Assembly (NCBI GenBank): GCA_003345555.1
Contig: PRDJ01000039.1
Span: 13,530-77,529 of the forward strand
From: Candidatus Thorarchaeota archaeon
Lineage (GTDB): Archaea > Asgardarchaeota > Thorarchaeia > Thorarchaeales > Thorarchaeaceae
Direction: 5' to 3'
Length of the DNA: 64,000 nt
Shown here: positions 18,095 to 57,189 of the stretch, one piece after another
How positions within the stretch are numbered: the first letter of the stretch is position 1
How the letters are laid out: each line of letters begins with the position of its first letter
The notes under the pieces: model-generated
Database searches by the model: none
What the model saw: only the letters and a program-made list of their open reading frames with translations
Told to the model about the DNA's origin: nothing
Position numbers and translations under genes: made by a program

Positions 18095-18349
18095 TCTTCA
18101 TCGCTCTTCTGGCTTCTTTGTTGAAGCTCGTGCCTTTCTCGCCGAGTGGAGTACACTTAACTCCGGTGGACCCCCGACCGGAGACCAGTGCCAAAGAATG
18201 TACCAAAGTGGCTTGGAAAGTGCATTTGCATACCATTCATCCAGACGTTATGTGCAGAAAGTACACTTATAGTGGGCTTGCCTACCGCTGGCATTTTTGG
18301 TATTGCATTCACACAAAAGTATTAATTATGTCACATTGGTCCCATCTGT

Positions 18350-19432: not shown

Positions 19433-19787
19433 ATCATCGCATTCGAGGGTTCATGCGGAGAACTAGTCTTCCAGCGTGAGCTCGCGAGAAATAAAGCCAC
19501 ACTGAAGTCCTTTGGCCTTCATCGATAGTGGCCGTATGCTCTGTGCTCGGACACGATTGCACGAGACCGCCAGAATGACATATCAGTCCATCAGTCTGAG
19601 CCAAGATTGCTGCATTTGGAATCAGAAATGCTCTTGGGTGCAAGAAGCTCGTAAAAACAGGGTCCTGATTGTCCACGGTTGCTATTTGACCGTGCATCTT
19701 TAATAGGTGGAGCTTCAAGCCGCGGATGGCTTCCTTATCACTTCTCAAGGGAGGAATATCAACTTGGAAGAGGAAACACACGGCAGC

Positions 19788-21032: not shown

Positions 21033-21049
21033 AGTTCCATAGGGTACTC

Positions 21050-21088
21050 GGAGGACTATCCATCAGGATGGTCCTCCACTTCTTTTAC
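21050..21088 (+). terminator. hairpin GGAGGAC-(14 nt loop)-GTCCTCC followed by a T-rich tract, 18 nt after the GDH2 stop
   Basis: ggaggactatccatcaggatggtcctcc followed by acttcttttac, read directly from the sequence. Confidence 0.45.
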
Positions 21089-21305
21089 ACATCGGCATGG
21101 ATCATGCGGTGGAAACACTGGAGAATAAGTGGCACTAGGGTGAGCACGTGCACCAGCAAAAATCAGTGCCTCGAACGAGGAGGCACGAGTTGCGCATGAT
21201 GTCTCCAACATTCTCACTAATCACTGGCCAAATTGCATTAAGATGGGCCGAAGGAGTCCTCGTGAGGAGGTCCCTCCTTCGGTCAGACAAATAACAACTA
21301 CACTA

Positions 21306-22568: not shown

Positions 22569-22879
22569 AGTCAACCGTCCTGAGGTCTTTATAGTGGAAC
22601 CCGTTCGATTTGGTATTAAACGCTTTCCTAGGTACTCCTCGCCATTCGCGTGGAAACACTGTGTACAGGAGATGGCTTGAGTTTTGTAGAATCCTTCATG
22701 TGATATGCACACGCAGCTATCCCCCGTTCGTGCGAAATCTGTTCGACCCGGAAAGCGGTCTCAGCGCCCTGTGCCACTACCTGCCTTCGAATCGAACAAC
22801 ACTTCAAGGGATTCAGATTCTGCAAACAACAGACTGCAACAGAACTGCAATTCTAACGAGCCCGTGGATGCATCCTCTT

Positions 22880-23491
22880 CTATCTTCTTATGACTTCGAG
22901 GAGTTCTGCCAGCCGCGCCTTTACGTCGGTCTCCACAGTTCTCAACTCAGCGAGTTGCCGGATTTGGGACATGCGGGCGGATCGGTAGTCAGCTTCCGAT
23001 ATCTTGCCGGTTCTTCGCTGAGCTTCAATCTTGTCCATCTGAGCAGCTATCTCGTTGCGCCTGTTGATAACGAGTTCGAAGCCGTGCTTCAGTGACATCC
23101 ATTCAATCATGGCATTACTTCGTTCTTCTTCCATGTGCTCGCGTTTTACTCTCTCTGCTTCCCTTTCTTTGAGCTTCTTGTTTGCGGTCCTGATCTGCTG
23201 CTGAAGCTCATACAATCTGGCTTCAACTTCTCTCTTCACTTCGATTATCTGTGTTGAAAGCTGCCATTTCTCCTTATACTGCTGAATATGCTCCTGCTCG
23301 GTTATCTCTCTCCTCGCGAGCTTCTCATCGAGTTTCGTGAGATCCATCTGCACTTGCTCGAGCTTTGCCTTGACTTCCTCGTATGACGCACGAAGGGCAG
23401 TCCACTCAACACTGAACTGGGTCAGAACCTCTTTCGGGTCTAGCTGTAGGTAGTCTTCGCCGCCCCCTTGGGGTCTTTGGCCATGACTCAT
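22880..23491 (-). CDS. coiled-coil protein (203 aa), unknown function
   Basis: Continuous heptad-like charged/hydrophobic pattern (KLEQVQMDLTKLDEKL...); no motif. Confidence 0.45.
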   Translation of the reverse strand: MSHGQRPQGGGEDYLQLDPKEVLTQFSVEWTALRASYEEVKAKLEQVQMDLTKLDEKLARREITEQEHIQQYKEKWQLSTQIIEVKREVEARLYELQQQIRTANKKLKEREAERVKREHMEEERSNAMIEWMSLKHGFELVINRRNEIAAQMDKIEAQRRTGKISEADYRSARMSQIRQLAELRTVETDVKARLAELLEVIRR

Positions 23492-23672
23492 CAGCTACAT
23501 CCGTCCTTGTCTATCAACATAGTTGTCCTACAATGCCTTCACCAATTGGACCGACTTAAGCTTTTTCCGAAGAAAGTGATGCAGAATGGTATTCGCTAGA
23601 GGGAAACACGACACCATTTCACCGAAAACTATAACGTGAGGGCCAGCAGGACTTTGGTCGTCGTGAAGGCAC

Positions 23673-24737
23673 ATGAATCTGAAGGTAGAACTTGTCCCGC
23701 CCGTAAGGAGGAAGCCAAAGCCCAAAGATCCTCTCAAGCTTCCTTTTGGATCAACCTTCACAGATCATATGTTCACAATGCGTTATCGGAATTCAGAATG
23801 GTCAGACCCTCAGATTGGACCCTACCAACCGCTGTCGCTCGACCCGGCTGCAATGTGCCTACACTATGGGCAAGGCATATTCGAAGGGATGAAGGCATAT
23901 CGCAGAGCAGGGAAGGTCTATCTATTTCGCCCCCGGGACAACATCATGCGCTTGAACGATTCAGCCAAGAGAATGGTCATGCCAGAAGTTGACGTTGATT
24001 TTGTGCTTGGGTGCCTGAAAGAGCTGGTGAAAACCGAAAGGGACTGGATTCCCGACCTGCCCGGCACATCGTTATACATCAGACCGACGATGATTGCAGT
24101 TGAGCCTAAACTCGGCGTTAGAGCATCTCTCGAGTATTTGTTCTACATAATAGTAGGACCCGTTGGTCCGTATTTTCCCGAAGGCTTTAACCCGCTGAAA
24201 ATCATGGTTTCAGACAAGTATGTTAGGGCTGTGCGAGGAGGAGTAGGGTTTTCAAAGACAATGGGCAACTACGCCGCCAGTCTCTTGGGGGGCAAAGAGG
24301 CATCAGATGCAGGTTGTTCCCAAGTACTGTGGCTGGATGCTATTGAACGTAAGTACGTCGAAGAGACAAGCACCATGAATGTGTTTGTCAAGTTTGACAA
24401 GGAGCTGGCCACGCCGCCTCTGGATGGGACGATACTGCCTGGCATAACGAGACATTCTGTGATTCGAATAGCGAAGGACTGGAATCTAACTGTGAACGAA
24501 CGTCGTGTTTCCATTGACGAGATTGCCGACGGAACGAAGTCAGGAAAGGTCAAGGAATTGTTCGGCGCCGGTACTGCGGCCACTATAGCTCCCATTGGAG
24601 AGCTTTTGTACCAAGGGAAATCATACGTTGTGTCCGGTGGCAAGACTGGTGACCTGACCCGCAGGCTATATGACGAACTCACTGCCCTACAGTGCGGCGA
24701 AGGAAAGGACAAATATGGCTGGGTTGTGAGCGTCTGA
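23673..24737 (+). CDS. ilvE: branched-chain amino acid aminotransferase (fold-type IV)
   Basis: N-terminal FGSTFTDHMF matches the conserved FG(T)VFTDHM block; 354 aa, long-form BCAT. Confidence 0.85.
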   Translation: MNLKVELVPPVRRKPKPKDPLKLPFGSTFTDHMFTMRYRNSEWSDPQIGPYQPLSLDPAAMCLHYGQGIFEGMKAYRRAGKVYLFRPRDNIMRLNDSAKRMVMPEVDVDFVLGCLKELVKTERDWIPDLPGTSLYIRPTMIAVEPKLGVRASLEYLFYIIVGPVGPYFPEGFNPLKIMVSDKYVRAVRGGVGFSKTMGNYAASLLGGKEASDAGCSQVLWLDAIERKYVEETSTMNVFVKFDKELATPPLDGTILPGITRHSVIRIAKDWNLTVNERRVSIDEIADGTKSGKVKELFGAGTAATIAPIGELLYQGKSYVVSGGKTGDLTRRLYDELTALQCGEGKDKYGWVVSV

Positions 24738-24798
24738 TTCGTCTCCTGATGCATATCTATATCCGTTGTCCATGGCTTGAACTTCGAATCATAGTGAG

Positions 24799-25314
24799 GT
24801 GTTAGACCTGCCTGCACAACTGACTGTCGATTACACCAAGTGCACTGGATGTAGAATCTGCGAGCTAGCTTGCAGTGCGAAGAAGGAGGGCCTCTTCAAC
24901 CCCGCTCTTGCCCGTCTCAAGATAGTCCGTTACGACGACTTAGGGATGGACATTCCCAATGTGTGTGGCCCCTGTGATGAGGCTCCTTGTGTTGATATTT
25001 GTCCCGTCTATGCGATGCGGCGCGACCCCCTCTCAAGAATGACGTATCTGGATGAGGACAAGTGTATCCTCTGCAAGTCCTGTGCCGGGGTATGTGTCAA
25101 CGGTGTGATTAAGCTGGACACCTCACGAATGAGAATTATAAAGTGTGACCACTGTGGAGGCGATCCTGAGTGCGCCAAGGCCTGTCCGACAGGTGCCATA
25201 CAATATGGCTCCATTTCTCAATCGACCATCAGGGGTCGGCATGGTAAGATGATACACTACCTCAAGGAGATAGAGCGGACTGCGTTAGCAGAACAAACCG
25301 ATGGGGAGAAGTAA
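24799..25314 (+). CDS. multi-cluster 4Fe-4S ferredoxin, probable electron partner of the adjacent AOR
   Basis: Four Cys-cluster motifs: CTGCRICELAC, CGPCDEAPCVDICP, CILCKSCAGVC and CDHCGGDPECAKACP. The stop overlaps the AOR start. Confidence 0.75.
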   Translation: MLDLPAQLTVDYTKCTGCRICELACSAKKEGLFNPALARLKIVRYDDLGMDIPNVCGPCDEAPCVDICPVYAMRRDPLSRMTYLDEDKCILCKSCAGVCVNGVIKLDTSRMRIIKCDHCGGDPECAKACPTGAIQYGSISQSTIRGRHGKMIHYLKEIERTALAEQTDGEK

Positions 25315-27217
25315 CGTGCAAGTCGGAGGATATGCTGGGAAGATCCTGAGGGTAAACTTGACCGATAGCAGTTTTCATGTGGAGCCCTTGCCGTCAGAAT
25401 GGGTCCGCGAATATGTAGGGGGAGATGGCTTCGCGGCAAGGATGCTCTTCTCGGAATTGAAGCCGAGAATAGACCCACTTGGCGAAGACAACAAGCTGAT
25501 AATCGCCACAGGCCCGGTCACTGGCACGTTGTGGCCCATGAGCGGTCGGACTGTATTTGTATCGAAGGCGCCTCTGACAGGGATATGGGGAGAGAGTCAT
25601 GTCGGCGGCTTTCTCGGACCTGAACTCAAGTATGCGGGATACGACCTTCTGGTTGTGGAGGGTAGGTCCGATGAGCCCGTTTACATTTCAATCGAGGACT
25701 CGGACCTCGAGCTGATGAAAGCAGCCGAGTTATGGGGTCTGAAGACAAATGAGGCTACAGCCGCCATCAAAGGAAGGCATTCAGATCCAGACACCCAAGT
25801 GGCTGCCATCGGGCCGGCTGGGGAACGCCTTGTGAGATTCGCATCGGTAATAGTGAACAACGCACGGGCGGCCGGAAGGACTGGCATGGGCGCAGTCCTG
25901 GGCTCGAAGAAGGTGAAAGCCATCGCAGTAAGAGGGCATAAGGCACTCGAGGTCAGTGATCACGATGAATTCGTTAGACTTGCGAAGGCCGCACATAAGC
26001 GAGTTCGGGAGAACGGTCAAGCCAGAGAGATGCACAAGTGGGGCACCTGGATTCTGACTTCAGTTAAGCAGACGATTGGGGAACTGCCCACATACAACCA
26101 TCGTACTGGTGTGTTCGACGGCTGGGAGAAACTCAGCGGCGAATACATACGACCAAGGTACACAATTTCAGATAGGGCTTGTTTCGGCTGCAGTCTAGGC
26201 TGCAAGAAGGTCAACTACGTTCGCGAGGGACCGTATGCCGGGACGTTTGGGGAAGGGCCTGAATATGAAGGTCTGATGTCATTTGGTAGCCTGTTAGGTA
26301 TCGCAGACTTTCCGACCGCTTTGAAAGCAAATCAATTATGCAACGGACTCGGTCTTGACATGATCTCCACAGGAGCCACAATCGCGTTCGCAATCGAGGC
26401 GTTTGAGAATGGCGCTATCGATGAAAGCATCGCGGATGGGATGAAACTGGAATGGGGCAACAGTGAGCAGGCTCTGCGACTGCTTGAGATGATAGCCAAG
26501 AAGGAGGGCATTGGCAAGCTGTTGGCAGAAGGAAGCAGAGCGGCGGCCAAGAGCATCGGTCATGGAAGCGACAAGTACGCAATCCACGTTAAGGGGCTCG
26601 AGATGTCAGGCCAAGACGGTCGAACTCACCGGAGCATAGGCCTGTCTCATGCCACTGCGGCCCGCGGGGCCGACCACCTTCGGAGTCTCGTGACCGTCGA
26701 TCAGCTTGGATATCAGGAAGTGGCTGCCAAGAGATGGGGTCGCGACAAGCTGCCGGAGATAGTTGATCCCTACACAGAGAAGTACAAGGCTGCTGCTGTC
26801 GTAGAGACTGAGAATGTGTACTGCATCAGGGACTCGATGATTGTCTGTTGGTATTCGGTGTCATGGCCTCCAATCTTCTGGCTTGATGATTTTGCGCAAG
26901 TGCTGCCAGTTGTGACGGGGGTCGATTCACTCGGGTCTACAGATGAGTTGCACAAGATTGCTGAGCGTCAAGTAACGCTGAAGCGGCTGTTCAATGCCCG
27001 AGAAGGCATTGACAGGAAGGACGATCGATTGCCCACCAGATTCACAGAAGAACCGATGCCCGAAGGTCCCGGGAGAGGACAGAGAGTGAATCTTGAGCCC
27101 ATGCTGAACGACTACTACAAGCTGCGCGGATGGAACCTGAAGAACGGACTCCCCACAGACGAGACCCTGCAAAGGCTATCACTTGAGTGGACTCGCACTG
27201 GCGTTCGACGGGAGTAG
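25301..27217 (+). CDS. aor: tungsten-type aldehyde:ferredoxin oxidoreductase family protein
   Basis: N-terminal GKILRVNLTD (AOR has GRILRVNLT); 638 aa; Cys ligand region CFGCSLGC; the family's two-domain size. Confidence 0.9.
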   Translation: MGRSNVQVGGYAGKILRVNLTDSSFHVEPLPSEWVREYVGGDGFAARMLFSELKPRIDPLGEDNKLIIATGPVTGTLWPMSGRTVFVSKAPLTGIWGESHVGGFLGPELKYAGYDLLVVEGRSDEPVYISIEDSDLELMKAAELWGLKTNEATAAIKGRHSDPDTQVAAIGPAGERLVRFASVIVNNARAAGRTGMGAVLGSKKVKAIAVRGHKALEVSDHDEFVRLAKAAHKRVRENGQAREMHKWGTWILTSVKQTIGELPTYNHRTGVFDGWEKLSGEYIRPRYTISDRACFGCSLGCKKVNYVREGPYAGTFGEGPEYEGLMSFGSLLGIADFPTALKANQLCNGLGLDMISTGATIAFAIEAFENGAIDESIADGMKLEWGNSEQALRLLEMIAKKEGIGKLLAEGSRAAAKSIGHGSDKYAIHVKGLEMSGQDGRTHRSIGLSHATAARGADHLRSLVTVDQLGYQEVAAKRWGRDKLPEIVDPYTEKYKAAAVVETENVYCIRDSMIVCWYSVSWPPIFWLDDFAQVLPVVTGVDSLGSTDELHKIAERQVTLKRLFNAREGIDRKDDRLPTRFTEEPMPEGPGRGQRVNLEPMLNDYYKLRGWNLKNGLPTDETLQRLSLEWTRTGVRRE

Positions 27218-31218: not shown

Positions 31219-33816
31219 GTGAGTCGAACGGGGAAGCCAAAGGCTGTGAGTGGAAGTACTATCGAGGCTATTCGAATGGCGTCCGCATCGGTTCTGGGTT
31301 CCACGACCGGACATGGCTATCCAATCGGTGATGCGGTCGGTGTGGGCAGCATGATGGAGGCCAACTCTGAAGCTGTTGCAGGAAATGTGGCACCACTGAT
31401 TCTCTCGGTAAGCACACCTTTGAAGGCCTCTGAAGAGCTTGAACTTCTGTCTATGGAGTGGGACCTCGAAAGGACGCCGGGACCCGAGATACTGCCTGAA
31501 CAGCTCGTTGTTGCTGGGGGGTATGCCCGGGGTGTTAGTTCACATGTTTCCATGCTAACTTGGGAAAAGGGCATTGCGGATCCCTTCAATATCGAAGAAC
31601 GAGTCGAGCTAATCTCAAAGAAGCTTGCTGACCTAGAAGCGGCAACATCGGCAAGCGGGCTCGGGGTTGAAAACGAAGGTCTAGCCGTCCTCCGTAAGTT
31701 CTCGGGCAGATTGAATCGGACTCTGTTCCTGGATATGTTAGATCGTCAGTTTCAGGGGTCTTGGAGTACGCTCAGGATCAAGCCTGAGGATGTCGATGTA
31801 GAACTTGTGATTAGGCAGAGCTATCGGAAGGATTTCACGACTATGCCTCCCGGTGTGAACATCTCCGAACGCTCAAGTCCTGAATTCTTGCTTCCAGATG
31901 CTGATGATGCTGCGCTAACGGAGCACTTCAAACACCGAATCCTGAGCCCAAGCGCAGTAAGAGCGCTGTCCGTTCAAGTGCCCGAAATCGGAAGGGCGAT
32001 TCTCAAGGAAATGAACAGATATGCTTACAGCGGCGAGGAGGCTGATATAGCTCGAGCGCTTACGGCGGCGCTCGTCCGGTTCTTGGGCCGGACCGATATG
32101 CGATTTGCCGAACTGGACAGCATAGCGAAGGAAGCTGTCGATTTCACAAGCACTGCAAAGAACGCGATTAGGATCCTTGGAGATGCCGTAGAGCAGCATG
32201 TTTCCTCTGGTACGAGTCTTCGTCTAGCCGAGCACAAAGAGCGTCTTGATACTGCAGTTGAATCCTTAATCGTTAAGTTACCCAGCCCCACTCGCGATGT
32301 AGTGACTTGGTTCCTGCATGAAATGACCTCTGCCATGATGAAGTCTGCCGGAGGTGACCTGCCGGGTGAGGTCGAGTTCAAGGCTTGGCAACTCAAGAGC
32401 GCGACGGGATATTTCCTCACCTACGCTAGGAAAGTCAGCGACTACTTTGCTGAGCAGCTCTATCGTTTCCTCATCGTTTCATTCGCACGGGCAGGCATCA
32501 TGAATTCGCTTCACAGTCTTCATCAGGAAATGCTTGAGAAGGGTCTGAGCCCCACAGATCTGGTATTGTTTAATATGCTCTATGATGAGCTTCTGTCAAA
32601 GTTCAAGTCGGCTCTTGGCCGACGGGCGTGCGAAGGAACGACAGAGCGCAACCCAGGCCAGCTCATGGTAGCAATAGTCCAAGAAATCGTCGATGAATTC
32701 TCACGGGATAATCCGCGGAACATGGCTCAGTTTAGGAACATGGTTCAGGTCGCACGTTCCGAGATAGAGGCAAAACACAAGGTCGAGGAGCGAGATGGCG
32801 TACAGGGTCTCGACCGACTAGGAGAAGCACTGTTGGTCCGACTCTCTGACCTTGAGACTCTCGTCACACAAACGCTTCAGGATATTGCAGATACCCTTCT
32901 CAGCAAGAGATTCATCACTCAACTCGCAGATTTGACGACAACAGAGCAATCCAAATTGTCGGCCGAATTCATCAGACTAGTCGAGCTGCAGGAAGGTAAG
33001 TCGGCGCAATGGAAGAGCGAAGCAAGAAAGATAGTAAACGATGCTCTGCAAGGAGCCGCCATGGGAAAGGGCACAGCCCCGAGGTTGCTTACGCTAACAC
33101 AGAATCTACACGAGGCCATCCGTACCGGCCCTTCCACCGAGTCAGTCCTACAACGCGTGAAATCTGAAGCCGAGAGGCTCCAAGCAGAATACGAGCGCGA
33201 AGTCGAGGAGTGGGAGATAGCGTGTTCTCGGATAGAATCAGAGAACGTGCGTATTCGGGATGAGAATGAAACAAGAGAAGGTCTCCTGAAGCAGGCAAGC
33301 GCTGACTATGCTCGCGAGACGGCTCAATATGAGCAATTGAAACAGGCATATGACCCGTCTACCGTCCCAGGTTCTCCTCCTGAACCGCCTGAAACCCTCG
33401 AGCAGCGTGTTCTTAGAATCGAGCGGGCGCATCCCGTACAGATGCCCAAGTCGATGCCCACGAAACCAGAGGCGCCTGAAGAGCTTCTCGTTGCTGATGA
33501 GCTGCGCGATACGATTGCCGCCAACATCGAGACAGCAAGCAGAGACGAAAAATCATTACAGAGTATTCTCATAGATCGACTGAATTCCATGCGCGATCAA
33601 CCGGCGAACCAGATGGGGGATCAGGTCGTCAATATCGCTGACGGATTTCATGAGTACCTATTGGAGTCAACAATACGAAGCATCGGAAAGCTGCTGCCGC
33701 GTGCTTCACGGGTCTATCTTAAATCGCCTGAAGAACCCGACCTGATTTATCTCGTGAGCTACGAATACAAGAAGGACGAGATGATGGTTCAAATCGGCAG
33801 CAATTTCCTGAGGTGA
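31219..33816 (+). CDS. large hypothetical all-helical protein (865 aa), no recognisable domain
   Basis: GTG start 7 nt after an aggagg SD-like element. Long uninterrupted ORF with a helical/coiled-coil composition (EAERLQAEYEREVEEWE...); no P-loop, no TM. Four nt separate it from the next gene. Confidence 0.6.
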   Translation: MSRTGKPKAVSGSTIEAIRMASASVLGSTTGHGYPIGDAVGVGSMMEANSEAVAGNVAPLILSVSTPLKASEELELLSMEWDLERTPGPEILPEQLVVAGGYARGVSSHVSMLTWEKGIADPFNIEERVELISKKLADLEAATSASGLGVENEGLAVLRKFSGRLNRTLFLDMLDRQFQGSWSTLRIKPEDVDVELVIRQSYRKDFTTMPPGVNISERSSPEFLLPDADDAALTEHFKHRILSPSAVRALSVQVPEIGRAILKEMNRYAYSGEEADIARALTAALVRFLGRTDMRFAELDSIAKEAVDFTSTAKNAIRILGDAVEQHVSSGTSLRLAEHKERLDTAVESLIVKLPSPTRDVVTWFLHEMTSAMMKSAGGDLPGEVEFKAWQLKSATGYFLTYARKVSDYFAEQLYRFLIVSFARAGIMNSLHSLHQEMLEKGLSPTDLVLFNMLYDELLSKFKSALGRRACEGTTERNPGQLMVAIVQEIVDEFSRDNPRNMAQFRNMVQVARSEIEAKHKVEERDGVQGLDRLGEALLVRLSDLETLVTQTLQDIADTLLSKRFITQLADLTTTEQSKLSAEFIRLVELQEGKSAQWKSEARKIVNDALQGAAMGKGTAPRLLTLTQNLHEAIRTGPSTESVLQRVKSEAERLQAEYEREVEEWEIACSRIESENVRIRDENETREGLLKQASADYARETAQYEQLKQAYDPSTVPGSPPEPPETLEQRVLRIERAHPVQMPKSMPTKPEAPEELLVADELRDTIAANIETASRDEKSLQSILIDRLNSMRDQPANQMGDQVVNIADGFHEYLLESTIRSIGKLLPRASRVYLKSPEEPDLIYLVSYEYKKDEMMVQIGSNFLR

Positions 33817-33820
33817 TTCA

Positions 33821-36265
33821 ATGTCAAGCTCTTGGATACTCAGAACTCGTCAGATGAGTGAAGCTGGAAAGGAAATCCTTCTGAGAGAAGCGCTCGCTTC
33901 TCATATGAGGAACACACGCGATCGACAGTTTGTCGCAGAGCTCCTGAAACAGAGATTGCCTCTGGAAGACATTGTTTGCCTCTTTGCAGCTTATTACCTC
34001 ACGAGCTATCAAGACGTGAGGCTGAGGGGACATGAATCCTTTGAGAACGTTCCCGGCGAACAGAAGGATCGGGTAGCGGCTGAGTCGCGGAGACTTCTGG
34101 AACTGGAGATACGCGGGCTCTTGGGTAACAAACAGAAAGAAGAGATGGACGTTGCAAGACTCATCAGCGAATTCATAGTTGAATTCTGTGATGAAGTCGT
34201 GAGACCTGACTCGTCAAACCCTCAGGCAGGGATTGAAGTCACTAAGCTGCTGCAATCGTATGTCAAGAGAATTCCTAATGACTACTCGCCAAACCATCAT
34301 ATCGATTTCATCAATGGTGTTACAGGCTGGGGGTCTATATGGAGAGACGAGATCTATGAGAAGGCATCGGGGCTCAAAGAGTCATCCCTGACGCTCAGAG
34401 AGGAGCTGCTTAAGGAGCGTGAGCCGGAGATACCCGAAACAGCTGTTCTTCTTAGGTGCATTACACGTTTGCTGGGACATACTACGTACCTTCAGGGCCC
34501 GTTGAGCCCCGGTGATATCGATAATAGCAAGTGGGAGGAGATTGCCCGAGCAGTAACCCAGAATATCGCCAAGAGCGGACAGGGGCTGCAAGCGCTGAGG
34601 AAAGCCCATCAGATTCGTCTAGAAGCTCTTGATGCCATCGAGAGGGAATTTCAAACCCCGACTTCCCTTGAGGAATTCGAGAATCGAGTCGGCGATTTTC
34701 TGGCGAAGCGAATTGCCGAGGAGATTGCAGCTAATCCAAATGACGCGTACTTTCTCTTGGGGCACTTGCTTGGCCTCAACCCAAATGATGTCAAAGCGGC
34801 ACTCAGACCGAAAGGAATCGCCAGCCCAACTGACCTTGTGTCTGGGTTCGGCGCACTGACCGCGGGAGCACCTGAGGATGTTGGGCGCACCCCAGCGGAA
34901 AAGGGTGATTTGGAGGACATGGACCGCTCGCTGAAAACATTGGACAAGATCGAGCAGACCCTTGAGAAGTCTGTGAAGGGTATGCTTCGTTCCCGCGGTC
35001 TCAAGTCTTCCGAACTCGACAAGATATCCCTCCAACTTCTCACCAAAGAGCGAAGCAGCCTCATAGGAATCGAGATTGTTGTATTGGAACAGTTGAAGAA
35101 GATGGTACGTGTTCCTCCTCCGCAAGAGATTGCCCGATTAATCAAACTCCGCGAGGACGTACAGAAAGGTGCCCTGACTTCTTCGGGTGTCTCCTCAGGA
35201 CCACAAGTCAGCCGCCAGCTGAAGCAAGATGAGACAATCCGTTCTCTTAAGCTGGATATAGTCTGGCACCTGATGATAGGCCTGTTTACGAACCTGACTC
35301 GTGTAGTAGAAATGTACGTGCGTTCCAAGCAGGACATTCTTCGTATCAAAGCGCTTCTCAAAAGCATCTACGAGAAGACCGAGAGTGAATTGCAGGTCTA
35401 CCGAGAAGAGATACTTTTCGACTTTGCCATCGTACGAATCCAAGAGATCAAGTGTATTTGCCCTGAGTTGGACACCCTTTCCCTTTGGGCTTGGTTCCAT
35501 GCGCGGCTGTCAGGCGAGGACATGGATTCTGCTAAGTCTGAGTTCACTGGTTCGTCAAGTTCTGTGTTTGAGGGCGTGGTCAAAGCCCCTCTCAGAATAG
35601 CTGGTCTTGAATTTGATAACTACGCTATAGCTTTCGACGTGATGAACAGATTCCTAGTGAGGGAGAAAAGGGCAAAGCAGGCTAAGGAAGAGGTTGCGGT
35701 AGAGACGAAGCTTGAAGAACAGAAAATGATAGAAACCAAACGGAAGGAGCTCGACGTCCTCACATTTATCTATACTAAGGCTCACACCGTATTCAAGGCC
35801 ACGGGCAGGACCGGTCCCAAAGGCTTGGAATGGACATCAACTGATAGTTCCAAATGTGCGAATCTCCTGAGTCTGTACTTGAGAACCAATCGGGGCCGAG
35901 CCATATGCACGGCATGTGGGTCAATGGCTAAGGAGGGAACGTGTCCTAATCATGGTTCAGAGCTTGTAAATGCGAGTTCCGACTTGGACAACTTGGCGGT
36001 GTTCATAATGCAGGGAATCTCCGAAATCAAGACTGGCCTTATCGGGCCGTCTGCTGAATCCATGTCGTGGGAGAAAGCGAAGGCCGTCGTGCAGAAAGAA
36101 ACTAGCTTGCTCAAGCAGAAAGGCAAGCTTGACAAGAAGGCGAACTTGAAGCTTCTCTTGCCGGGTGAGATAGACTATGTGGTCGGCCCAGCAATGGCGG
36201 CCGTCGTGGCGCAGTACTTCAATGAGTCACTTCAGTATGCCGCTCGTCGGGCACGCTTGGCATGA
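33821..36265 (+). CDS. large hypothetical all-helical protein (814 aa) with one Cys2-Cys-His knuckle
   Basis: ATG preceded by gaggtga; coiled-coil stretches; CTACGSMAKEGTCPNHG near the C-terminus; no NTPase motif. Translationally coupled to the upstream 865-aa gene. Confidence 0.6.
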   Translation: MSSSWILRTRQMSEAGKEILLREALASHMRNTRDRQFVAELLKQRLPLEDIVCLFAAYYLTSYQDVRLRGHESFENVPGEQKDRVAAESRRLLELEIRGLLGNKQKEEMDVARLISEFIVEFCDEVVRPDSSNPQAGIEVTKLLQSYVKRIPNDYSPNHHIDFINGVTGWGSIWRDEIYEKASGLKESSLTLREELLKEREPEIPETAVLLRCITRLLGHTTYLQGPLSPGDIDNSKWEEIARAVTQNIAKSGQGLQALRKAHQIRLEALDAIEREFQTPTSLEEFENRVGDFLAKRIAEEIAANPNDAYFLLGHLLGLNPNDVKAALRPKGIASPTDLVSGFGALTAGAPEDVGRTPAEKGDLEDMDRSLKTLDKIEQTLEKSVKGMLRSRGLKSSELDKISLQLLTKERSSLIGIEIVVLEQLKKMVRVPPPQEIARLIKLREDVQKGALTSSGVSSGPQVSRQLKQDETIRSLKLDIVWHLMIGLFTNLTRVVEMYVRSKQDILRIKALLKSIYEKTESELQVYREEILFDFAIVRIQEIKCICPELDTLSLWAWFHARLSGEDMDSAKSEFTGSSSSVFEGVVKAPLRIAGLEFDNYAIAFDVMNRFLVREKRAKQAKEEVAVETKLEEQKMIETKRKELDVLTFIYTKAHTVFKATGRTGPKGLEWTSTDSSKCANLLSLYLRTNRGRAICTACGSMAKEGTCPNHGSELVNASSDLDNLAVFIMQGISEIKTGLIGPSAESMSWEKAKAVVQKETSLLKQKGKLDKKANLKLLLPGEIDYVVGPAMAAVVAQYFNESLQYAARRARLA

Positions 36266-36624: not shown

Positions 36625-36816
36625 CTTCAAGTAACTCCGTTGGGCTGATTCATTCTACCAGTTCGCCGATTGTTGTCCTCCTTCCGCATTCTTCACGAAT
36701 CGCTGCTTTTGTTAGAAGAGGCGGTTGATCGGCCTATTCCCCTGATAGTCATAGAGCAACGTAACCTGAAACTTATATACGGCCTTAGGACCGGCTTGGC
36801 TGCTGAGTGAATTCAG

Positions 36817-38220
36817 ATGCCTAAGAAGTTCGTGCCAAGAGGGATAATGCCAGCCCTCATAACGCCATTCGCGAAAGATGGCGAGATAATCGAACAGAGC
36901 TTTCGCGAGATTATCGATTACACAATTAGCAAAGGAGCCGCCGGAGTCGTACCCGCTGGCACAACGGGCGAGTTCGTTTACATGAATATGGACGAGCGCA
37001 AGAAGCTTCTGAGTCTGACAACGGAATGCGTGAATGGTCGCGTTCCGATTATTGCAGGCACAGGTCAGAGCAGCACTGAAGCAGCTACTGAGCTGACGAA
37101 GTACGCGGCAGATATTGGATGCGATGCAGCTTTGATCGTTTCTCCCTTCTATTTGAAACCGACTGACAAGGGCTACTACGAGCACTATGCCACTATCGCA
37201 AGAAAGAGTGACCTGCCTGTCATAATGTATAATATTCCTCAGATGGGCGGTATGGGTGTCCTCCCTGTTAGCGTTGTGGAAGACCTAGCCGAACTGGACA
37301 ATATCGTAGGCATCAAGGACAGCAGTGGTAACATAACCTACATGCTGGAACTACTGCAGAAGCTAAAAGGCCGCATTTCTGTGATAAATGGCAATGACGA
37401 GATCTTCTTCTCTGCAGTGACTGCGGGTGTGAACGCCGCAATCATGGCCTCAGCGAACTTGATGCCTCATCTTTGGAATGATCTTTTGAAGAAAGTCCGC
37501 AAAGGTGACATTGATGGAGCCCTCAAGCTTCAGCTCTCGATGCAGACTCTGACTCGAATTGTGACAAGGTATGGAGGTGCTCCGCCAGTCAGGGCAGCAC
37601 TGAAGATGATGGGAATCGATTCGGGTAAAGCACGAATGCCACTTAACACAGGTGGGACGTTGACTCCCGAACTTAAGGAGGAAATAAGAGTCGAGCTGGA
37701 GAAGCTAGGGCTGATTGGGGGTTCAAAGCATGTTGGTCCAGCGAAAGAAGTCGACATTAATGGTGTCCTACTAGAGGCCGGATTGAGTGCCGAACAGCAA
37801 CAAGCCCTCAAGGTCGGACGCGGATCGAGTCAAGCTTGTACCGCCAGCGTCGTTTGTGGATCCAAGACCGGTCCCCTGGGATCAGCGTTTGTCCGATTGC
37901 TGACGACTCCGCGAATTGGACGCGAGGCACTATCAGTGATTCTTGAACCGAACTTGGCTGTCAGACCTTCCAGCCTAATGTTGCCGGGCAGAAAGATCAG
38001 CTCAATGCGTCAGGCGTCAGTGTTCTACGGTCCAGTGCAGTCCGGCGCTGCTAGAGCTGTTGCAGGTCACCTAGCTGCTGGCAAGATATCTCCTGACGCG
38101 GTTCAAAACAATGTCATGGTGATGGTGATCGATGTGGACTTGGATACAGTCGACAGAAGAGCAGTCACTGCCGCTACGGAGGTAGCGGTTTCCGCGGCTC
38201 TCAGTCAGATTTGGAGGTGA
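36817..38220 (+). CDS. DapA/DHDPS-like class I aldolase fused to a C-terminal Fae-like domain (paralog 1)
   Basis: N-terminal 295 aa: GIMPALITPF...GTTGEF..., the Schiff-base aldolase (DHDPS/NAL family) pattern. C-terminal ~170 aa aligns with formaldehyde-activating enzyme (LMLPGRKISSMRQASVFYGPVQSGAARAVAGHLAAGKISPD.. versus Fae [41 protein letters not shown]). Confidence 0.7.
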   Translation: MPKKFVPRGIMPALITPFAKDGEIIEQSFREIIDYTISKGAAGVVPAGTTGEFVYMNMDERKKLLSLTTECVNGRVPIIAGTGQSSTEAATELTKYAADIGCDAALIVSPFYLKPTDKGYYEHYATIARKSDLPVIMYNIPQMGGMGVLPVSVVEDLAELDNIVGIKDSSGNITYMLELLQKLKGRISVINGNDEIFFSAVTAGVNAAIMASANLMPHLWNDLLKKVRKGDIDGALKLQLSMQTLTRIVTRYGGAPPVRAALKMMGIDSGKARMPLNTGGTLTPELKEEIRVELEKLGLIGGSKHVGPAKEVDINGVLLEAGLSAEQQQALKVGRGSSQACTASVVCGSKTGPLGSAFVRLLTTPRIGREALSVILEPNLAVRPSSLMLPGRKISSMRQASVFYGPVQSGAARAVAGHLAAGKISPDAVQNNVMVMVIDVDLDTVDRRAVTAATEVAVSAALSQIWR

Positions 38221-38256
38221 GGAAAAACGCCTGAAGGATCTTGGCGATTCAAAGGT

Positions 38257-39705
38257 GTGTACGCCGGACTAGTCACACCGTTTGGTGAGAACGGCGTCAA
38301 TGAGGCACAATACCGCAATCTGATTGAGCATGTTATCAAGGCAGGGGCAAACGGCATTGTTCCCTGCGCATCACTCGGCGAATTCACAAGTATGTCATTT
38401 GAGGAGAAAGCTGAAGCTATTCGAGTCGCATGCGACGCTGCGAAGGGACGGGTGCCGGTGCTTGCGGGTGCATGCGCGGCTTACACTGCCGACGTCGTCA
38501 AGCTGTATCTAAAGGCTGCCGAGTACGGAGCTTCGGGGGCGTTGGTAGTCTCTCCGTATTTCATGAAGCCTTCCACAAAGGAAATCTATGAACACTATGA
38601 GAAGGTTGCGAACTCAGCTGGTCTCCCAGTATTCCTGTATAATTGTCCACAGTTCACTGGCGTGAACCTCGACTGGTGGCTGATCGAAGGTCTGCGCGAG
38701 ATCAAGGGCATTATTGGGCTCAGCGATGCGAGCGGCAACTTGGTCAATGTCTCGCAGATACTCGCTCGTCGGCCAGAGGACTTTCAAGTTGTTGTTGGCC
38801 ATGATGAAGTCGTTCTGCCGAGTATGGCAGCAGGCTGCGATGGAGCTATCCTAGCAACTGCAAATATCTTCCCCGACAGATATGTAAGAATGGCGATTGC
38901 TCTAAGTCAAGGCGATCTCAAAGAGGCTAGACTCATTCAGCGTAGCGTTCAGAGAACCGCGAGAATCGTTGTCAACAAGGGCGGTCCTCTCGCTGTCAAG
39001 GCGGCCCTGAATATGATGGGCATCCCCGTCGGTTCTGCTCGAATGCCTCTCCTACAGGGCGATGTTCTGGGCTATGATGACTTAGATGAACTCAGGACAC
39101 AGCTGGAAGACCTCCAGCTGATGCCTAGAGGGTCAGTCACCTACAGGGCGCATGGTCGATCCGTTGTTACGGATGCATATCCGAAGGCTGTGGGAATGAG
39201 CAAGGACATCATCGATGACCTCACCCTCCTTCATGGAGAAGCTTTGTGTGGGGAGGGATTGGAAGTTGCTCATGTCGATCTGGTTGTGGGACTCAAGGAT
39301 GGGCCTATGCAGGCTGCCTTGACCAACGCAGGTATCAAGACCGATGGCTTCCATATGTCCAACATCATCAAGGACCTTCGACCTACGACCGTATTTGCGC
39401 CCACGGTGACAATCACCGACGAACATCACAGCAGGCTCGTGTTCGAGTTCGCTCAGAAGGCCGTTGCTGACGCTGTGACAAGGACAATCACAGACCGGAT
39501 GATTCCCGAGGAGCTTGTGCCAGACCTAGTGATTGCTGTGAAAGTGTTCGTCCATCCCAATGCCAACAACCCAAGACGGGTACACATGAACAATTTCCGA
39601 GCCACGAGGTTTGCGATAAGGCGAGCTCTGGAAGGTCGACAATCTGTAGAGGAGGTAGTTGCCCGAAAGGACTCAGCTCGTCATCCATATGGCTACAATC
39701 CATGA
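38257..39705 (+). CDS. DapA/DHDPS-like class I aldolase fused to a C-terminal Fae-like domain (paralog 2)
   Basis: GTG start. DapA-like N-half (LVTPF..., GEF). The C-terminal domain carries the Fae signature HGEALCGEGLEVAHVDLVVGLKDGP (Fae: [24 protein letters not shown]) and a KDSARHPYG end (Fae: KSATHPF). Confidence 0.75.
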   Translation: MYAGLVTPFGENGVNEAQYRNLIEHVIKAGANGIVPCASLGEFTSMSFEEKAEAIRVACDAAKGRVPVLAGACAAYTADVVKLYLKAAEYGASGALVVSPYFMKPSTKEIYEHYEKVANSAGLPVFLYNCPQFTGVNLDWWLIEGLREIKGIIGLSDASGNLVNVSQILARRPEDFQVVVGHDEVVLPSMAAGCDGAILATANIFPDRYVRMAIALSQGDLKEARLIQRSVQRTARIVVNKGGPLAVKAALNMMGIPVGSARMPLLQGDVLGYDDLDELRTQLEDLQLMPRGSVTYRAHGRSVVTDAYPKAVGMSKDIIDDLTLLHGEALCGEGLEVAHVDLVVGLKDGPMQAALTNAGIKTDGFHMSNIIKDLRPTTVFAPTVTITDEHHSRLVFEFAQKAVADAVTRTITDRMIPEELVPDLVIAVKVFVHPNANNPRRVHMNNFRATRFAIRRALEGRQSVEEVVARKDSARHPYGYNP

Positions 39706-40597: not shown

Positions 40598-41821
40598 TTG
40601 TCTCGCGCTCACCTTATGAAACTGCCTTTTTCCGTCGCAATCTTCTTAGCGTGCCTAGACTGGTCCCTCACTGATGCAGCGTTGGTAAACACATCGCGAG
40701 TTCTTCATCTTGTCAAAGCCCTCGTAGCCGCGAACTCAGAGAATCCCCCAGGTCGAGAGGATCGGGCCGCCCAAGTCCTACGTGAACACGTGGAGGAACA
40801 TAGTCTTTCCTGCACGACAATCGGTCCAGACGAGCGACCGAATCTGGTCGTTTCGACCGATCGTCTTGACGAGGCAGAGCTGGTGCTTCACGGTCATCTT
40901 GATACGGTCCCCGTAGGTCCGAGAGACTCATGGTCGCATGAACCATTTCAGTGTGAGCAGGTGGGTGACAGACTCTATGGGCGAGGAGCCTGTGACATGA
41001 AAGGGCCACTAGCAGCATTGGTTGAGACGATGATAACCTATGCTGACGAAAGGCACGCGAAGCCGCTGCTTATGCTAGCCACGACTGATGAAGAGAGCGG
41101 TTCTTCTGGTGCTGACCAAGTAGCTGCAAGCAAGATCCTAACCGGAGTTCGCTATGGCGTATGCGCGGAACCTACGTCGCTTGAGGTTCTGGTGGGCGAG
41201 AAAGGGATGCTATGGGTTCGCGTTACTGCTGAAGGGAAGTCAGCCCATGGTTCTAGGCCTGAGGAGGGGATCAATGCCATTGAACTCTGCATAAACGCCG
41301 TCAAGATACTGACAAAGCGCCCCTATCCGTTCGAGCGAGATTCACTCATGGGAAAGCCGACGATGAACGTAGGTGTCATAAACGGCGGCGTCAAAATCAA
41401 TGTGGTACCCAATCGGTGTGAAGCACTTATCGACATGAGACTAGTGAAAGGGCAGGGCATCGAGTCCACCCTTGAGCAAATGAAGAACAGGTTGAAAGAA
41501 GCTGGTCTATCTGAAAGAGTCAGGGTGGATTATGTCCACGGACTCCCCGCAGTAATCACTCCGATTGATGCAGAGATAGTGTCAGCAAGTCTTGAAGCTG
41601 TTGAGAAGGTGACGGGCCGAGCACAGCGACCCCGTGCCGCAACGTTTGGCACGGACTGTTCTGTTCTGCAACCCAAGATAGGCATCCTGAATGTGATTTG
41701 CGGGGCAGGTTCAATTGAACAGGCGCATCAACCTGATGAGTACGTTTCTGTGGAGCAGTTGCTCTCTTCTGTTGATGTCTATCTCCATATAGCGAGGCAC
41801 TTTGCTCGCGACATCTCTTGA
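40598..41821 (+). CDS. M20-family metallopeptidase (ArgE/DapE/acetylornithine deacetylase-like)
   Basis: LHGHLDTVP metal-binding motif, catalytic ..DMKG.. and ..TDEE.. blocks, and a dimerisation-domain-sized insert; the N-terminal ~40 aa may be over-extended. Confidence 0.8.
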   Translation: MSRAHLMKLPFSVAIFLACLDWSLTDAALVNTSRVLHLVKALVAANSENPPGREDRAAQVLREHVEEHSLSCTTIGPDERPNLVVSTDRLDEAELVLHGHLDTVPVGPRDSWSHEPFQCEQVGDRLYGRGACDMKGPLAALVETMITYADERHAKPLLMLATTDEESGSSGADQVAASKILTGVRYGVCAEPTSLEVLVGEKGMLWVRVTAEGKSAHGSRPEEGINAIELCINAVKILTKRPYPFERDSLMGKPTMNVGVINGGVKINVVPNRCEALIDMRLVKGQGIESTLEQMKNRLKEAGLSERVRVDYVHGLPAVITPIDAEIVSASLEAVEKVTGRAQRPRAATFGTDCSVLQPKIGILNVICGAGSIEQAHQPDEYVSVEQLLSSVDVYLHIARHFARDIS

Positions 41822-46402: not shown

Positions 46403-47047
46403 TCACTTCATGCCAGCTATTTGCCTATCAAGATCCTCAAGCTGCGAATCCAGTTCGGCTTCCTTGGTCTTGTAGTCCTCTTCTGGAATGTATCCTCTCA
46501 TGTAGTCAAAGCGCAAGTCAGTCAAGGCAGCCTTCAAACGATCCTTCTGTTGCAGAAGGAAGTCGAGTTGGTCGCTAGAACCTGCAGGCGCTGCTGGAGC
46601 TGGAGCAGGAGCTACCTTTGCTGCGGGTGCAGCAGGCGCTGACTTCGCTGGGGCCGGAGCTAGTGCCGATTTCGCGGGAGCGGGTGCTGGCGCAGGCTTT
46701 GGCGTAGGTGCTGGAGCTGCTTTTGGAGTTGCAGCAGCCTTCGGAGGAGCTGTCGGTGCAGCCCTCGGTGGCGCAGTCGGGGCAGCAGCCTCTGCCGACA
46801 ATGAGCTTGGTTGTACTGCCTCCATAGTCTCCATGTTACGCCTAAGAGTGTCAATCTGGTCAGCAATCTGAGTAAAGCTATCATTGATGGTCTGATTAAT
46901 CGCGGTCTTCATCCTTGCCAAGTTCTCTGCCAGCTGATCGGCAAGCTTCTTTGTCTCCGCGACCTTGTTAGCAAAGCTTTCTATCGCCCTGAGCTTCTGG
47001 TTCAGCTCTTCCATTTGTCTTTGAATAGCGCTAAAATCGAAGGCCAT
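46403..47047 (-). CDS. coiled-coil protein with Pro/Ala-rich low-complexity linker
   Basis: N- and C-terminal amphipathic helices flank an (AP/PA/AK)n stretch (46560..46800, GC-rich low-complexity DNA). Confidence 0.5.
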   Translation of the reverse strand: MAFDFSAIQRQMEELNQKLRAIESFANKVAETKKLADQLAENLARMKTAINQTINDSFTQIADQIDTLRRNMETMEAVQPSSLSAEAAAPTAPPRAAPTAPPKAAATPKAAPAPTPKPAPAPAPAKSALAPAPAKSAPAAPAAKVAPAPAPAAPAGSSDQLDFLLQQKDRLKAALTDLRFDYMRGYIPEEDYKTKEAELDSQLEDLDRQIAGMK

Positions 47048-47144: not shown

Positions 47145-48017
47145 CTACGCAGGCACCGGTTTGGCTTCACCCTTTCCTTCAAGGATGGCTTTCCGGATGA
47201 TTTGAATGAGGCGGTCTCTATAGGAGATGTCTATCGCGACGAGCTCGTAAGTGGCGATTCCGAGAATCTGGCCCACTCTCTCAGGAGTCAGAGCAGTGGG
47301 CAGGTCTTGCTTGTTGGCGATGCCAATTACCTTGGCTTCAGGAACCTCCTCTTTGACCAGAGACACCAACTTCTTGCTACGCAAAACGTTCTCAAGGGTA
47401 CTATCGGTCACAATGATGACAACTTGGGCATTCGCTATCATCTTGGCCCAGAGGATACTAAACCGCGATTGACCCGCAAGGTCCCAGAGTACTATGTTCG
47501 CATTTTGGACTTCGTCCGGGAGCTTCTTTATCGATACACCGATTGTAGGATCATGTACCAGTGGAAGTGTCTCTCCCCTGAGCAGATGCAGTGTGGTGGT
47601 CTTGCCAACGCCTGCGTATCCAAGAATCGCCACCTTCACCATTGTCACTGCTATCTCGTCGACCTTTGCATCAAGACCTTCCAAGGGGAGGTTCGCTTCT
47701 GCAAGGGTTGCGAAGTCCTTTATGAAGGCATCAACTAGCTGCGTCATCCGCTCCTCTATCTGAGCTGTGTCGTCGGCCTTGTCGGCCACAAACATGAATA
47801 CGAAGTCGCGTCGAGCAGCATAGAATATCCTTGTCCCTGAGAAACCCATGTACTCTGTCTTTCCCTCCAGGTCAACTGAGGAAATGAAATGAGCGAAATT
47901 CACTAGGAACTCAACCAGTCCCTCTCCTGATTCGCTCTTGGCGTATTCTTTGGAATATATGACATTGCTCTGTTGTCCAAGTATGTATAGGCTTCTAATC
48001 ATTGCTCGCCACTCCAC
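47145..48017 (-). CDS. longin/roadblock-like N-terminal domain fused to a Ras-superfamily small GTPase
   Basis: GTPase motifs: G1 GYAGVGKTT, switch-I PTIG, G3 WDLAGQ, G4 ANKQD. The first ~125 aa (IRSLYILGQQSNVIYSKEY...FVFMFVADKADDTAQIEERMTQLVDAFIKDF) follow the longin/SRX/roadblock profilin-like pattern (compare Sec22/Ykt6 ...VVIADNEYPSRVAFTLLEKVLDEF). Confidence 0.7.
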   Translation of the reverse strand: MEWRAMIRSLYILGQQSNVIYSKEYAKSESGEGLVEFLVNFAHFISSVDLEGKTEYMGFSGTRIFYAARRDFVFMFVADKADDTAQIEERMTQLVDAFIKDFATLAEANLPLEGLDAKVDEIAVTMVKVAILGYAGVGKTTTLHLLRGETLPLVHDPTIGVSIKKLPDEVQNANIVLWDLAGQSRFSILWAKMIANAQVVIIVTDSTLENVLRSKKLVSLVKEEVPEAKVIGIANKQDLPTALTPERVGQILGIATYELVAIDISYRDRLIQIIRKAILEGKGEAKPVPA

Positions 48018-56733: not shown

Positions 56734-57189
56734 GCGACTCCCTGATCAGCCTGCTGGTGAACTCAGAGGTCGTCGCCGGCAACTCACTTTCCGGCCCATT
56801 GGCTTGGATAGTCGTGCCATGTGCAAGTCTTTGATTCCAACACCTTAAGCTTATCAATAAAGAACGCAGATGAACGACCGTCTTGCCAAGCGCGTCGCGA
56901 TATGGCTGACTGCACGACAATCGCGAAATCGCGTGCTCCAACGATTCTGCCGCACGGAGGGCTTTGGTGATTTGAATCCGAAGTCACGGTTCTGCAAGTG
57001 GTCAACCGCCGCATGTGTCGGATGGCCAAAAAAAGGAACGGCTTTGCGACCAAACGAATGGCTTTGTACGGAATTGCTTATTATGCGAAGCCAAACAACT
57101 GGGCGTCATTCCGAAGTGAGCCGGTCAGGCCGTCTGATAGCTATCCCGTATCCATCCATCGTAGGGAACGATGCTGGAGGTAGTGATTG

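Follow-up and report, generated by a model that had tools for sequence, protein, structure and literature searches.

The window analysed here is a stretch of 64,000 nucleotides (nt) from a Candidatus Thorarchaeota archaeon (assembly GCA_003345555.1, contig PRDJ01000039.1, positions 13,530 to 77,529 of the forward strand). The subject of this report is a pair of adjacent genes within it, G1 and G2, termed here the alpha and beta genes. In the list of open reading frames (ORFs) of the window, G1 begins with ATG and encodes 467 residues, and G2, which lies 36 nt beyond it, begins with GTG and encodes 482 residues, or 492 if the start is taken at an ACG further upstream (Table 1). A preliminary description of the locus, made without database searches, had read each gene as a domain of the DHDPS family joined to a C-terminal domain, which it likened to Fae, the formaldehyde-activating enzyme. 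Pfam bears this out, with DHDPS at residues 8-278 of G1 (E = 1.4e-77) and 4-267 of G2 (E = 4.5e-67), and Fae at residues 335-463 of G1 (E = 2.4e-23) and 327-478 of G2 (E = 1.1e-34); the Fae profile did not fail to match either C-terminal domain. Both proteins exceed the cut-offs of PF00701 (DHDPS/NAL; 260.7 bits for G1 and 226.3 for G2, against 22.1) and PF08714 (Fae; 83.4 and 120.2 bits, against 27). The NCBIfam equivalog-domain model for Fae, TIGR03126 (cut-off 118.05 bits), accepts G2 at 132.3 bits and leaves G1 below at 72.0. The Fae-Hps model PRK13307 reaches 59 bits with G1 and 110 with G2 against a cut-off of 274, the Fae part alone matching and no Hps domain being present in either protein. 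In the databases RDE13960.1, from a Candidatus Thorarchaeota metagenome-assembled genome (MAG) and identical to G1, is named '4-hydroxy-tetrahydrodipicolinate synthase', and RDE13961.1 (482 residues, likewise from a Candidatus Thorarchaeota MAG and in the cluster of G2) is named 'hypothetical protein C4K47_05160'.

Residues were assigned by alignment to solved DHDPS structures, E. coli DapA and Methylorubrum extorquens Fae. The aldolase domain of alpha carries the complete catalytic set, comprising the GTTGE motif, Tyr112 (equivalent to Tyr107 of DHDPS), Tyr138 (Tyr133) and Lys167 (Lys161), the last being the predicted Schiff-base lysine. In G2, Lys161 is replaced by Ser156, GTTGE by ASLGE, Tyr107 by Phe102 and Arg138 by Phe133; Tyr128 is retained at the Tyr133 position. 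The implicit assumption of the preliminary description, that both copies are catalytically complete, is wrong, the aldolase lysine being found in G1 alone and the Fae histidine in G2 alone.

These assignments were extended to 120 alpha and 110 beta proteins of Thorarchaeota. All 120 alpha homologues keep GTTGE, Tyr133 and Lys161, as do 18/18 alpha proteins from other lineages and 27/27 of the single-gene forms described below. Lys161 is present in 106 of the 110 beta homologues, its loss being confined to the clade of the window, in which four proteins with serine (P0001-P0004) are 83-100% identical to G2. Position 107 is phenylalanine in 108/110 beta proteins and mostly tyrosine in alpha. Arg138 is missing, by alignment counts, from all 230 thorarchaeotal members and from every other lineage; the position holds Cys in 113/120 alpha and Val in 102/110 beta proteins, and Met in G1 and Phe in G2. 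The pocket residues at positions 138 and 187 differ between the alpha and beta families, and the GDD motif of DHDPS has become G(H/N)D in the fusion proteins. Arg138 of DHDPS binds aspartate semialdehyde and is required in true DapA. As neither G1 nor G2 has it, the name DapA is unjustified despite the scores against TIGR00674 (222.3 bits for G1 and 221.9 for G2, both just above the cut-off of 206.15), which are the source of the database annotation. Judged by these residues, we consider that name wrong for this pair.

The Fae domains of the two proteins are incomplete in complementary ways. The domain of G1, which had been described as the more divergent, is indeed so: it has Thr342 and Ser344 at the positions of Fae His22 and Asp24 and stops about 22 residues early. 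It does contain the middle motifs of Fae, namely EPNL (from 37948), RQA (38008) and YGPxQ (38029). In G2 the Fae signature noticed earlier is present as HGEALCGEGLEVAHVDLVVG, giving GEAL...EVAH339VD341L, together with FVHP and the C-terminal arm SARHPYGYNP. Across Thorarchaeota, His22 is found in 109/110 beta proteins and in no alpha protein (Ser, Thr or Ala there), and Asp24 in 109/110 beta and about 1% of alpha proteins (mostly Gly or Ser); the C-terminal arm is missing from all 120 alpha proteins. In M. extorquens Fae numbering, the positions conserved only in beta are 9-25 (the His22 loop), a few in 51-91, and 119-169 (FxH and the SARHPF arm); those conserved only in alpha are 38-60, including P58-N59-L60, and M68, R78-Q79-A80, G85-P86 and G90. 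The matches obtained with M. extorquens Fae as query were all at least 78% identical to it, a range too narrow to represent conservation across Fae as a whole.

Fae is reportedly a homopentamer that binds methylene-tetrahydromethanopterin (methylene-H4MPT) in a cleft between two adjacent subunits. His22 is said to act as acid catalyst, the C-terminal arm to become ordered upon binding, and Gln88 to flip. The two partial motif sets suggest one composite Fae site for H4MPT and formaldehyde in each alpha-beta pair, located at the interface of the two Fae domains.

Table 1. Coordinates of features of the alpha-beta locus, of other regions of the window, and of the recurrent ~310-residue neighbour in other loci (L numbers).
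Feature	Position	Strand	Remarks
Possible archaeal TATA box TTATATA	36773..36779	+	About 41 nt before alpha ATG; read from sequence
Alpha subunit gene G1	36817..38220	+	ORF; Pfam DHDPS + Fae; sequence identical to RDE13960.1
Alpha DHDPS-family class I aldolase domain	36838..37650	+	Catalytic set complete; Met143 replaces Arg138
Alpha Lys167 codon (predicted Schiff-base lysine)	37315..37317	+	Alignment to solved DHDPS
Alpha Fae-like domain	37819..38205	+	Without His22/Asp24 and C-terminal arm; below TIGR03126 cut-off
Shine-Dalgarno-like motif GGAGGTGA	38213..38220	+	Overlaps alpha TGA; 6 nt ahead of ancestral beta start
ACG replacing beta ATG	38227..38229	+	ATG in L019, L020 and L022; ACG in window only
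Beta subunit gene G2	38257..39705	+	ORF; Pfam DHDPS + Fae; in >=90% identity cluster of RDE13961.1
Beta DHDPS-like domain without Schiff-base lysine	38266..39057	+	Alignment; Ser156 codon 38722-38724
Beta Fae domain	39235..39690	+	TIGR03126 passed; His339 codon 39271-39273; without PNL and GP motifs
Eukaryote-signature-type regions	7829-8497, 46403-47047, 47145-48017		
~310-residue protein, L030	6648-7577		
~310-residue protein, L041	1894-2841		
~310-residue protein, L049	8215-9153		
~310-residue protein, L011	4484-5392		
~310-residue protein, L016	11866-12798	-	

Homology searches with G1 and G2 returned more than 100 clusters each, and those with a named source are nearly all from Thorarchaeota. 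Beta proteins are about 491 residues long and alpha proteins about 465, and in 32 clusters the same longest contig occurs in both lists. When 1.84 billion cluster representatives were searched exhaustively with a profile, only about 13 clusters (at 50% identity) of full-length fusions emerged, again of alpha or beta type. A genome scan with a profile built from three sequences located beta-type genes among archaea in Bathyarchaeota and Geothermarchaeota ('Ca. Scotarchaeum'), and among bacteria in Chloroflexia, Anaerolineae, Brocadiia, Myxococcales and one gammaproteobacterial MAG; members from Korarchaeota/Thermoproteota were added through cluster look-ups, and a metagenome scan gave at least 390 related contigs. 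Among 55 longer loci drawn from both scans and the look-ups, 19 hold an alpha-beta pair and at least 27 a lone fusion gene, without alpha in its vicinity.

The pairs come from Thor-, Bathy-, Kor- and Geothermarchaeota, Chloroflexota, Brocadiia and Myxococcota, and in 19/19 of them alpha lies immediately 5' of beta on the same strand. The same order holds in every locus of the genome scan that has upstream DNA, except L014, where the ORF reaches the contig end. Where the junctions could be read, the two genes overlap by up to 10 nt or are separated by up to 6 nt, an arrangement that is the usual mark of translationally coupled subunits and suggests coupling here. The preliminary description had taken the duplication as a sign of two substrate specificities; what is found instead is an ancient and always adjacent couple whose members have lost complementary Fae motifs. 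We conclude that G1 and G2 are members of two old, co-inherited families, alpha and beta, and not the products of a local duplication.

The single-gene forms, which are common on metagenome contigs of Bathyarchaeota and Lokiarchaeota/Promethearchaeota, are 492-496 residues long and carry both the aldolase and the Fae sets complete (for example L006 P0242 and L045-L104). In the 27 loci of this form, E11, H22 and D24, the PNL and GPxQ motifs and H121 are present in 27/27, and RQA and the C-terminal HPF in 26-27/27. The 18 alpha forms from other lineages have PNL in 16-18/18, RQA in 17-18/18 and GPxQ in 17-18/18, lack the C-terminal HPF in 18/18, and have His22 and H121 in 7/18 each. In the 19 beta forms E11, H22 and D24, H121 and HPF are present in 19/19, PNL is deleted in 18/19, RQA is variable and GPxQ is lost. 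The single-gene, homomeric form is probably the ancestral one.

In the neighbour-joining tree, the aldolase domains of the fusion proteins all fall into a single clade, apart from the standalone members of the DHDPS family (95-98 of 100 bootstraps). Within it the lineages follow the same order in the alpha as in the beta subtree, as would be expected if a single old duplication was followed by joint inheritance or joint transfer of the two genes. Support is weak for the deep nodes that divide alpha, beta and single-gene forms (33-34% and 73%), and alpha and beta of the korarchaeotal pair L023 group together. In the clade in which beta has serine for the lysine (the window, L019, L020 and L022), the non-synonymous divergence (dN) of the beta domain is 0.08-0.10, against 0.07-0.10 for the aldolase domain of alpha, and omega for the lysine-less domain is about 0.04-0.06, an approximate value as synonymous divergence (dS) is saturated (>1.4). 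The lysine-less domain evolves as slowly as its counterpart in alpha, and is therefore kept for some function; most simply, it would serve as a structural partner of alpha. Decay of this domain as a pseudogene is rejected on dN and omega, with the saturation of dS borne in mind.

At the junction between the two genes, the Shine-Dalgarno-like motif GGAGGTGA is conserved in L019, L020, L022 and L001. In relatives the junction reads TGGAGGTGA-NNNNNN-ATG, the alpha stop codon lying inside the motif and the beta ATG two codons on. In the window this ATG has become ACG. The next in-frame start is the GTG at 38257, use of which would drop the conserved N-terminal sequence SWRFKG encoded upstream of it. 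As contigs from at least two sources carry the 482-residue form of beta, the ACG at 38227 is probably a real variant. The two genes share a reading frame in the clade of the window (38218-38256; L019, L020), with one TGA and two codons between them. Joining of alpha and beta by stop-codon readthrough or selenocysteine insertion was considered; it is unlikely, since L020 has two consecutive stops, L001 uses a different frame and no Rfam element was found.

In the window, the aldolase lysine is found only in alpha, and the Fae histidine and C-terminal arm only in beta, so that the pair looks like one heteromer with one site of each kind. We consider it likely that G1 and G2 provide, as alpha and beta, the two subunits of a single enzyme with split sites. 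The ancestor would have been a single gene with both domains complete. One old duplication would have been followed by a division of the Fae motifs, the His22/Asp24 loop and the arm remaining in beta and the PNL, RQA and GPxQ motifs in alpha. A head-to-tail interface of the pentamer type, caught between just two Fae domains, would provide only one complete site, and each copy could then have lost its unused half. In the clade of the window the aldolase chemistry would also have become one-sided, with Lys167 in alpha against Ser156 in beta.

As to the reaction, the most economical chemical reading, by analogy with Fae-Hps, is a pyruvate aldolase coupled to formaldehyde and H4MPT. The aldolase site of alpha would cleave 4-hydroxy-2-oxobutanoate (HOB), or form it by joining formaldehyde to pyruvate, and the one-carbon (C1) unit would be moved to or from H4MPT at the Fae site, in either direction. 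The net reaction would be a pterin-dependent hydroxymethyl transfer, joined to the H4MPT branch of the Wood-Ljungdahl pathway, which Thorarchaeota encode complete. Fae is described as speeding the condensation of formaldehyde with H4MPT and as specific for both, and the formation of HOB from pyruvate and formaldehyde is so far documented only as a promiscuous aldolase activity used in synthetic pathways (the homoserine cycle), HOB itself being termed a non-native metabolite. As both half-reactions favour condensation, their sum may lie near equilibrium. To the combination of heteromer, split Fae site and pyruvate/C1 chemistry we assign a probability of roughly 0.55. The specific reaction, HOB + H4MPT <-> pyruvate + methylene-H4MPT, is proposed tentatively on the basis of the domains present. 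More doubtful still is a natural pyruvate hydroxymethyltransferase with a split Fae site, in which methylene-H4MPT from the methyl branch of the Wood-Ljungdahl pathway and pyruvate would give HOB, and this homoserine by amination, or the reverse; there, a pentamer-type Fae interface would have been captured in a dimeric aldolase scaffold before the site was split over two polypeptides. The heteromer model is well supported by the comparative data, and the substrate assignment is offered as a hypothesis.

Among known systems, Fae-Hps (PRK13307), fusions of which are common in archaea, comes nearest in logic; by sequence, the N-terminal domain is nearest to DapA and the C-terminal one to Fae. 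As in Fae-Hps, Fae is fused to a formaldehyde-handling aldolase in archaea that use H4MPT, and would capture or deliver formaldehyde at the aldolase. In contrast to it, the partner here is a Schiff-base class I aldolase of the DHDPS family and not Hps, the order is aldolase followed by Fae, and there are two subunits with divided Fae motifs. The Fae domain of beta aligns over its full length with M. extorquens Fae (PDB 1Y5Y/1Y60; E = 1.8e-22), sharing His22, Asp24 and the HPF arm. That enzyme is reportedly a free 18-kDa homopentamer with its sites between identical subunits, whereas here the motif set is distributed over two unlike chains, both of which carry an aldolase domain. With DapA/DHDPS (PF00701) the aldolase domains share the fold and, in alpha, GTTGE, Tyr133 and Lys161, and the best PDB matches are DHDPS (phmmer E ~1e-52); they differ in lacking Arg138 and GDD, in forming a separate clade and, in beta of the window, in lacking the lysine. 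The HOB aldolase of the synthetic homoserine cycle (RhmA and others), PanB and SHMT resemble the proposed enzyme in the net joining of a carbanion donor to a C1 unit at the formaldehyde level, but are unrelated in fold or mechanism (class II metal aldolases; SHMT uses pyridoxal phosphate). What appears to be new is the fusion of Fae to a different class of aldolase, together with a Fae site apparently split over two subunits.

A literature search on the combination of Fae with DHDPS/DapA and on formaldehyde metabolism in Thorarchaeota and Asgard archaea found no description of this architecture and no biochemical characterisation, in agreement with the preliminary description, which was aware of none. 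The family is not rare, however: it extends throughout Thorarchaeota and into several other archaeal and bacterial lineages, and its members are automatically annotated as DapA or Fae.

Several observations weigh against the proposed coupling of aldolase and Fae chemistry in a split heteromer. His22 persists in some alpha proteins (Brocadiia, L009), and the division of the motifs is therefore not absolute. In the window the ATG of beta is lost, so that expression of beta here is uncertain. In L024 (231-2788) the aldolase lysine is missing from both subunits, being replaced by Ala in alpha (P0247) and by Leu in beta (P0254-like), the latter also with His for Tyr133; its Fae motifs are still complementary and intact, and aldolase chemistry must therefore be dispensable at least there. 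Finally, about 40 ORFs of the window and about 40 neighbours in more than 20 loci were annotated, and the neighbours of all 55 loci were clustered; no neighbourhood or pathway is conserved across lineages and no operon partner is conserved within Thorarchaeota, and the context therefore identifies no pathway.

Some of these observations would suit a complex that is essentially the Fae of the organism and serves to detoxify formaldehyde or to channel it into the H4MPT pathway for assimilation, with the DHDPS-like domains acting mainly as a dimerisation scaffold and carrying out no aldolase reaction of physiological relevance. The beta domain in the clade of the window has lost its lysine and is still under purifying selection, Fae motifs outlast the lysines of both subunits in L024, and nothing in the family is more invariant than its set of Fae motifs. 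Yet the aldolase set is kept in every alpha protein from Thorarchaeota, in all those from other lineages and in all single-gene forms, a constancy not easily accounted for if these domains were only a scaffold, and free-standing Fae works without one; we regard this explanation as unlikely. Less probable again is the same heteromer acting on another 2-oxo acid, either 3-methyl-2-oxobutanoate to give ketopantoate, as an H4MPT-dependent analogue of PanB, or 2-oxobutanoate. Two features could point this way: position 138 holds a small or hydrophobic residue instead of arginine (mostly Cys in alpha and mostly Val in beta proteins), and the window contains, 12-20 kb upstream, three ELFV dehydrogenases together with an aminotransferase of class IV (branched-chain type). 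PanB is the textbook precedent for transfer of a C1 unit from a methylene-pterin onto a 2-oxo acid. Against it, to our knowledge the characterised DHDPS/NAL-family enzymes take pyruvate as donor, and the patchy distribution of the family is typical of an accessory function and not of core cofactor biosynthesis.

G2 could also be a pseudogene in the making in this genome, having lost both its start codon (the change from ATG to ACG is seen in the window only) and its lysine. This is improbable, as its frame is intact over 482-492 codons, its Fae motifs are perfect, an in-frame GTG lies 30 nt downstream of the ACG and the strong Shine-Dalgarno-like motif is retained; moreover, the change of Lys to Ser is common to four relatives at 83-86% identity, with an omega of about 0.05, and is therefore an old, tolerated state. 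That the two proteins are independent bifunctional paralogues with different substrates, as first supposed, would accord with their full length, with Pfam scores above threshold for both, and with the differing pocket residues of the two families. It is very improbable given that thorarchaeotal alpha proteins lack the Fae histidine and that the arm is missing from alpha inside and outside Thorarchaeota (120/120 and 18/18), that beta lacks the middle Fae motifs and G2 the aldolase lysine, and that in two-gene lineages the genes are never apart and are tightly juxtaposed. The idea of a genuine DapA of lysine biosynthesis with an accessory domain has in its favour the TIGR00674 scores of both proteins and the DHDPS structures as best PDB matches, and is almost certainly incorrect: Arg138 is absent from every lineage, G2 has no Lys161, GDD is altered, and the proteins form a clade of their own.

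If the proposed chemistry is true, these genes would form a direct bridge from the H4MPT-bound C1 pool to central C3/C4 metabolism in Asgard archaea, Bathyarchaeia and other anaerobes, overlooked by current metabolic reconstructions because the genes are automatically named DapA, Fae or 'hypothetical'. The enzyme would then be a natural counterpart to the HOB-aldolase step engineered for synthetic methylotrophy, and would provide a C1 + C3 -> C4 route that has so far been only a synthetic design. Whatever the substrate, the family is a clean case of duplication with complementary degeneration of a shared inter-subunit active site, and as the complete single-gene and split two-gene forms are both extant, the transition is open to direct study. 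Misannotation, with a 'DapA' that lacks Arg138 and a G2 that lacks the lysine, can distort inferences on lysine biosynthesis in these genomes.

The sole neighbour that recurs across the clustered loci is an unannotated protein of about 310 residues, with no Pfam or PDB match and a faint U32/TrhP-like signal. It adjoins the fusion gene or genes in at least five lineages, Bathyarchaeota, Chloroflexia and Myxococcales among them (Table 1), in several loci 10-120 nt upstream on the same strand, where it could act as a third component; no copy of it was found in the window or in any thorarchaeotal locus retrieved. L041 contains a tight same-strand operon (1096-6054) headed by a transaldolase/fructose-6-phosphate aldolase, with the U32-like protein, alpha and beta following in this order, a possible sign of a link with sugar phosphates in that lineage. 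In L002 the pair is bordered by aminotransferases and a peptide ABC transporter, and in L016 (Myxococcales) an ELFV dehydrogenase adjoins it; the aminotransferases and the dehydrogenase are weak hints of 2-oxo-acid or amino-acid chemistry.

In the window, the region 16868-27217 has the look of an amino-acid catabolic cluster. It holds three paralogues of the Glu/Leu/Phe/Val (ELFV) dehydrogenase family (16868-18094 on the minus strand, 19707-21032 on the plus strand and 21306-22712 on the minus strand), the class IV aminotransferase (23673-24737), a poly-ferredoxin (24799-25314) and an aldehyde:ferredoxin oxidoreductase (25301-27217). Lying 10-20 kb upstream of the pair, the dehydrogenases, the aminotransferase and the ferredoxin/oxidoreductase pair give a further weak hint as to function. 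An oxidoreductase of the last kind also precedes the pair in L001 and the single gene in L049. Immediately before the pair come two adjacent genes for proteins of 865 and 814 residues without Pfam match (31219-36265); both also precede the pair in L001 and L020, and in L019 the 814-residue gene alone does so before the locus ends. Downstream of the pair, in the window (40598-41821) as in L001, L019 and L020, is an M20-family peptidase (ArgE/DapE/LysK-like), which beside the name 'DapA' could give the false impression of a lysine-pathway cluster.

The start of G1 is overlapped by an antisense ORF for 157 residues (36712-37185, minus strand), which lies opposite strongly conserved coding sequence and is probably spurious. 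RNA genes were searched for in the window and none was found. Genes of eukaryote-signature type, typical of Asgard archaea, are present elsewhere in it and comprise a Snf7/ESCRT-III protein and a small GTPase of the Arf/Ras family; a faint CdvA-like coiled-coil match falls below the Pfam cut-off. At its far end an ORF of at least 2271 codons (57187-63999), of lower GC content (0.47-0.50) and continuing past the window end, has a signal-peptide-like N-terminus and probably encodes a giant secreted or surface protein.

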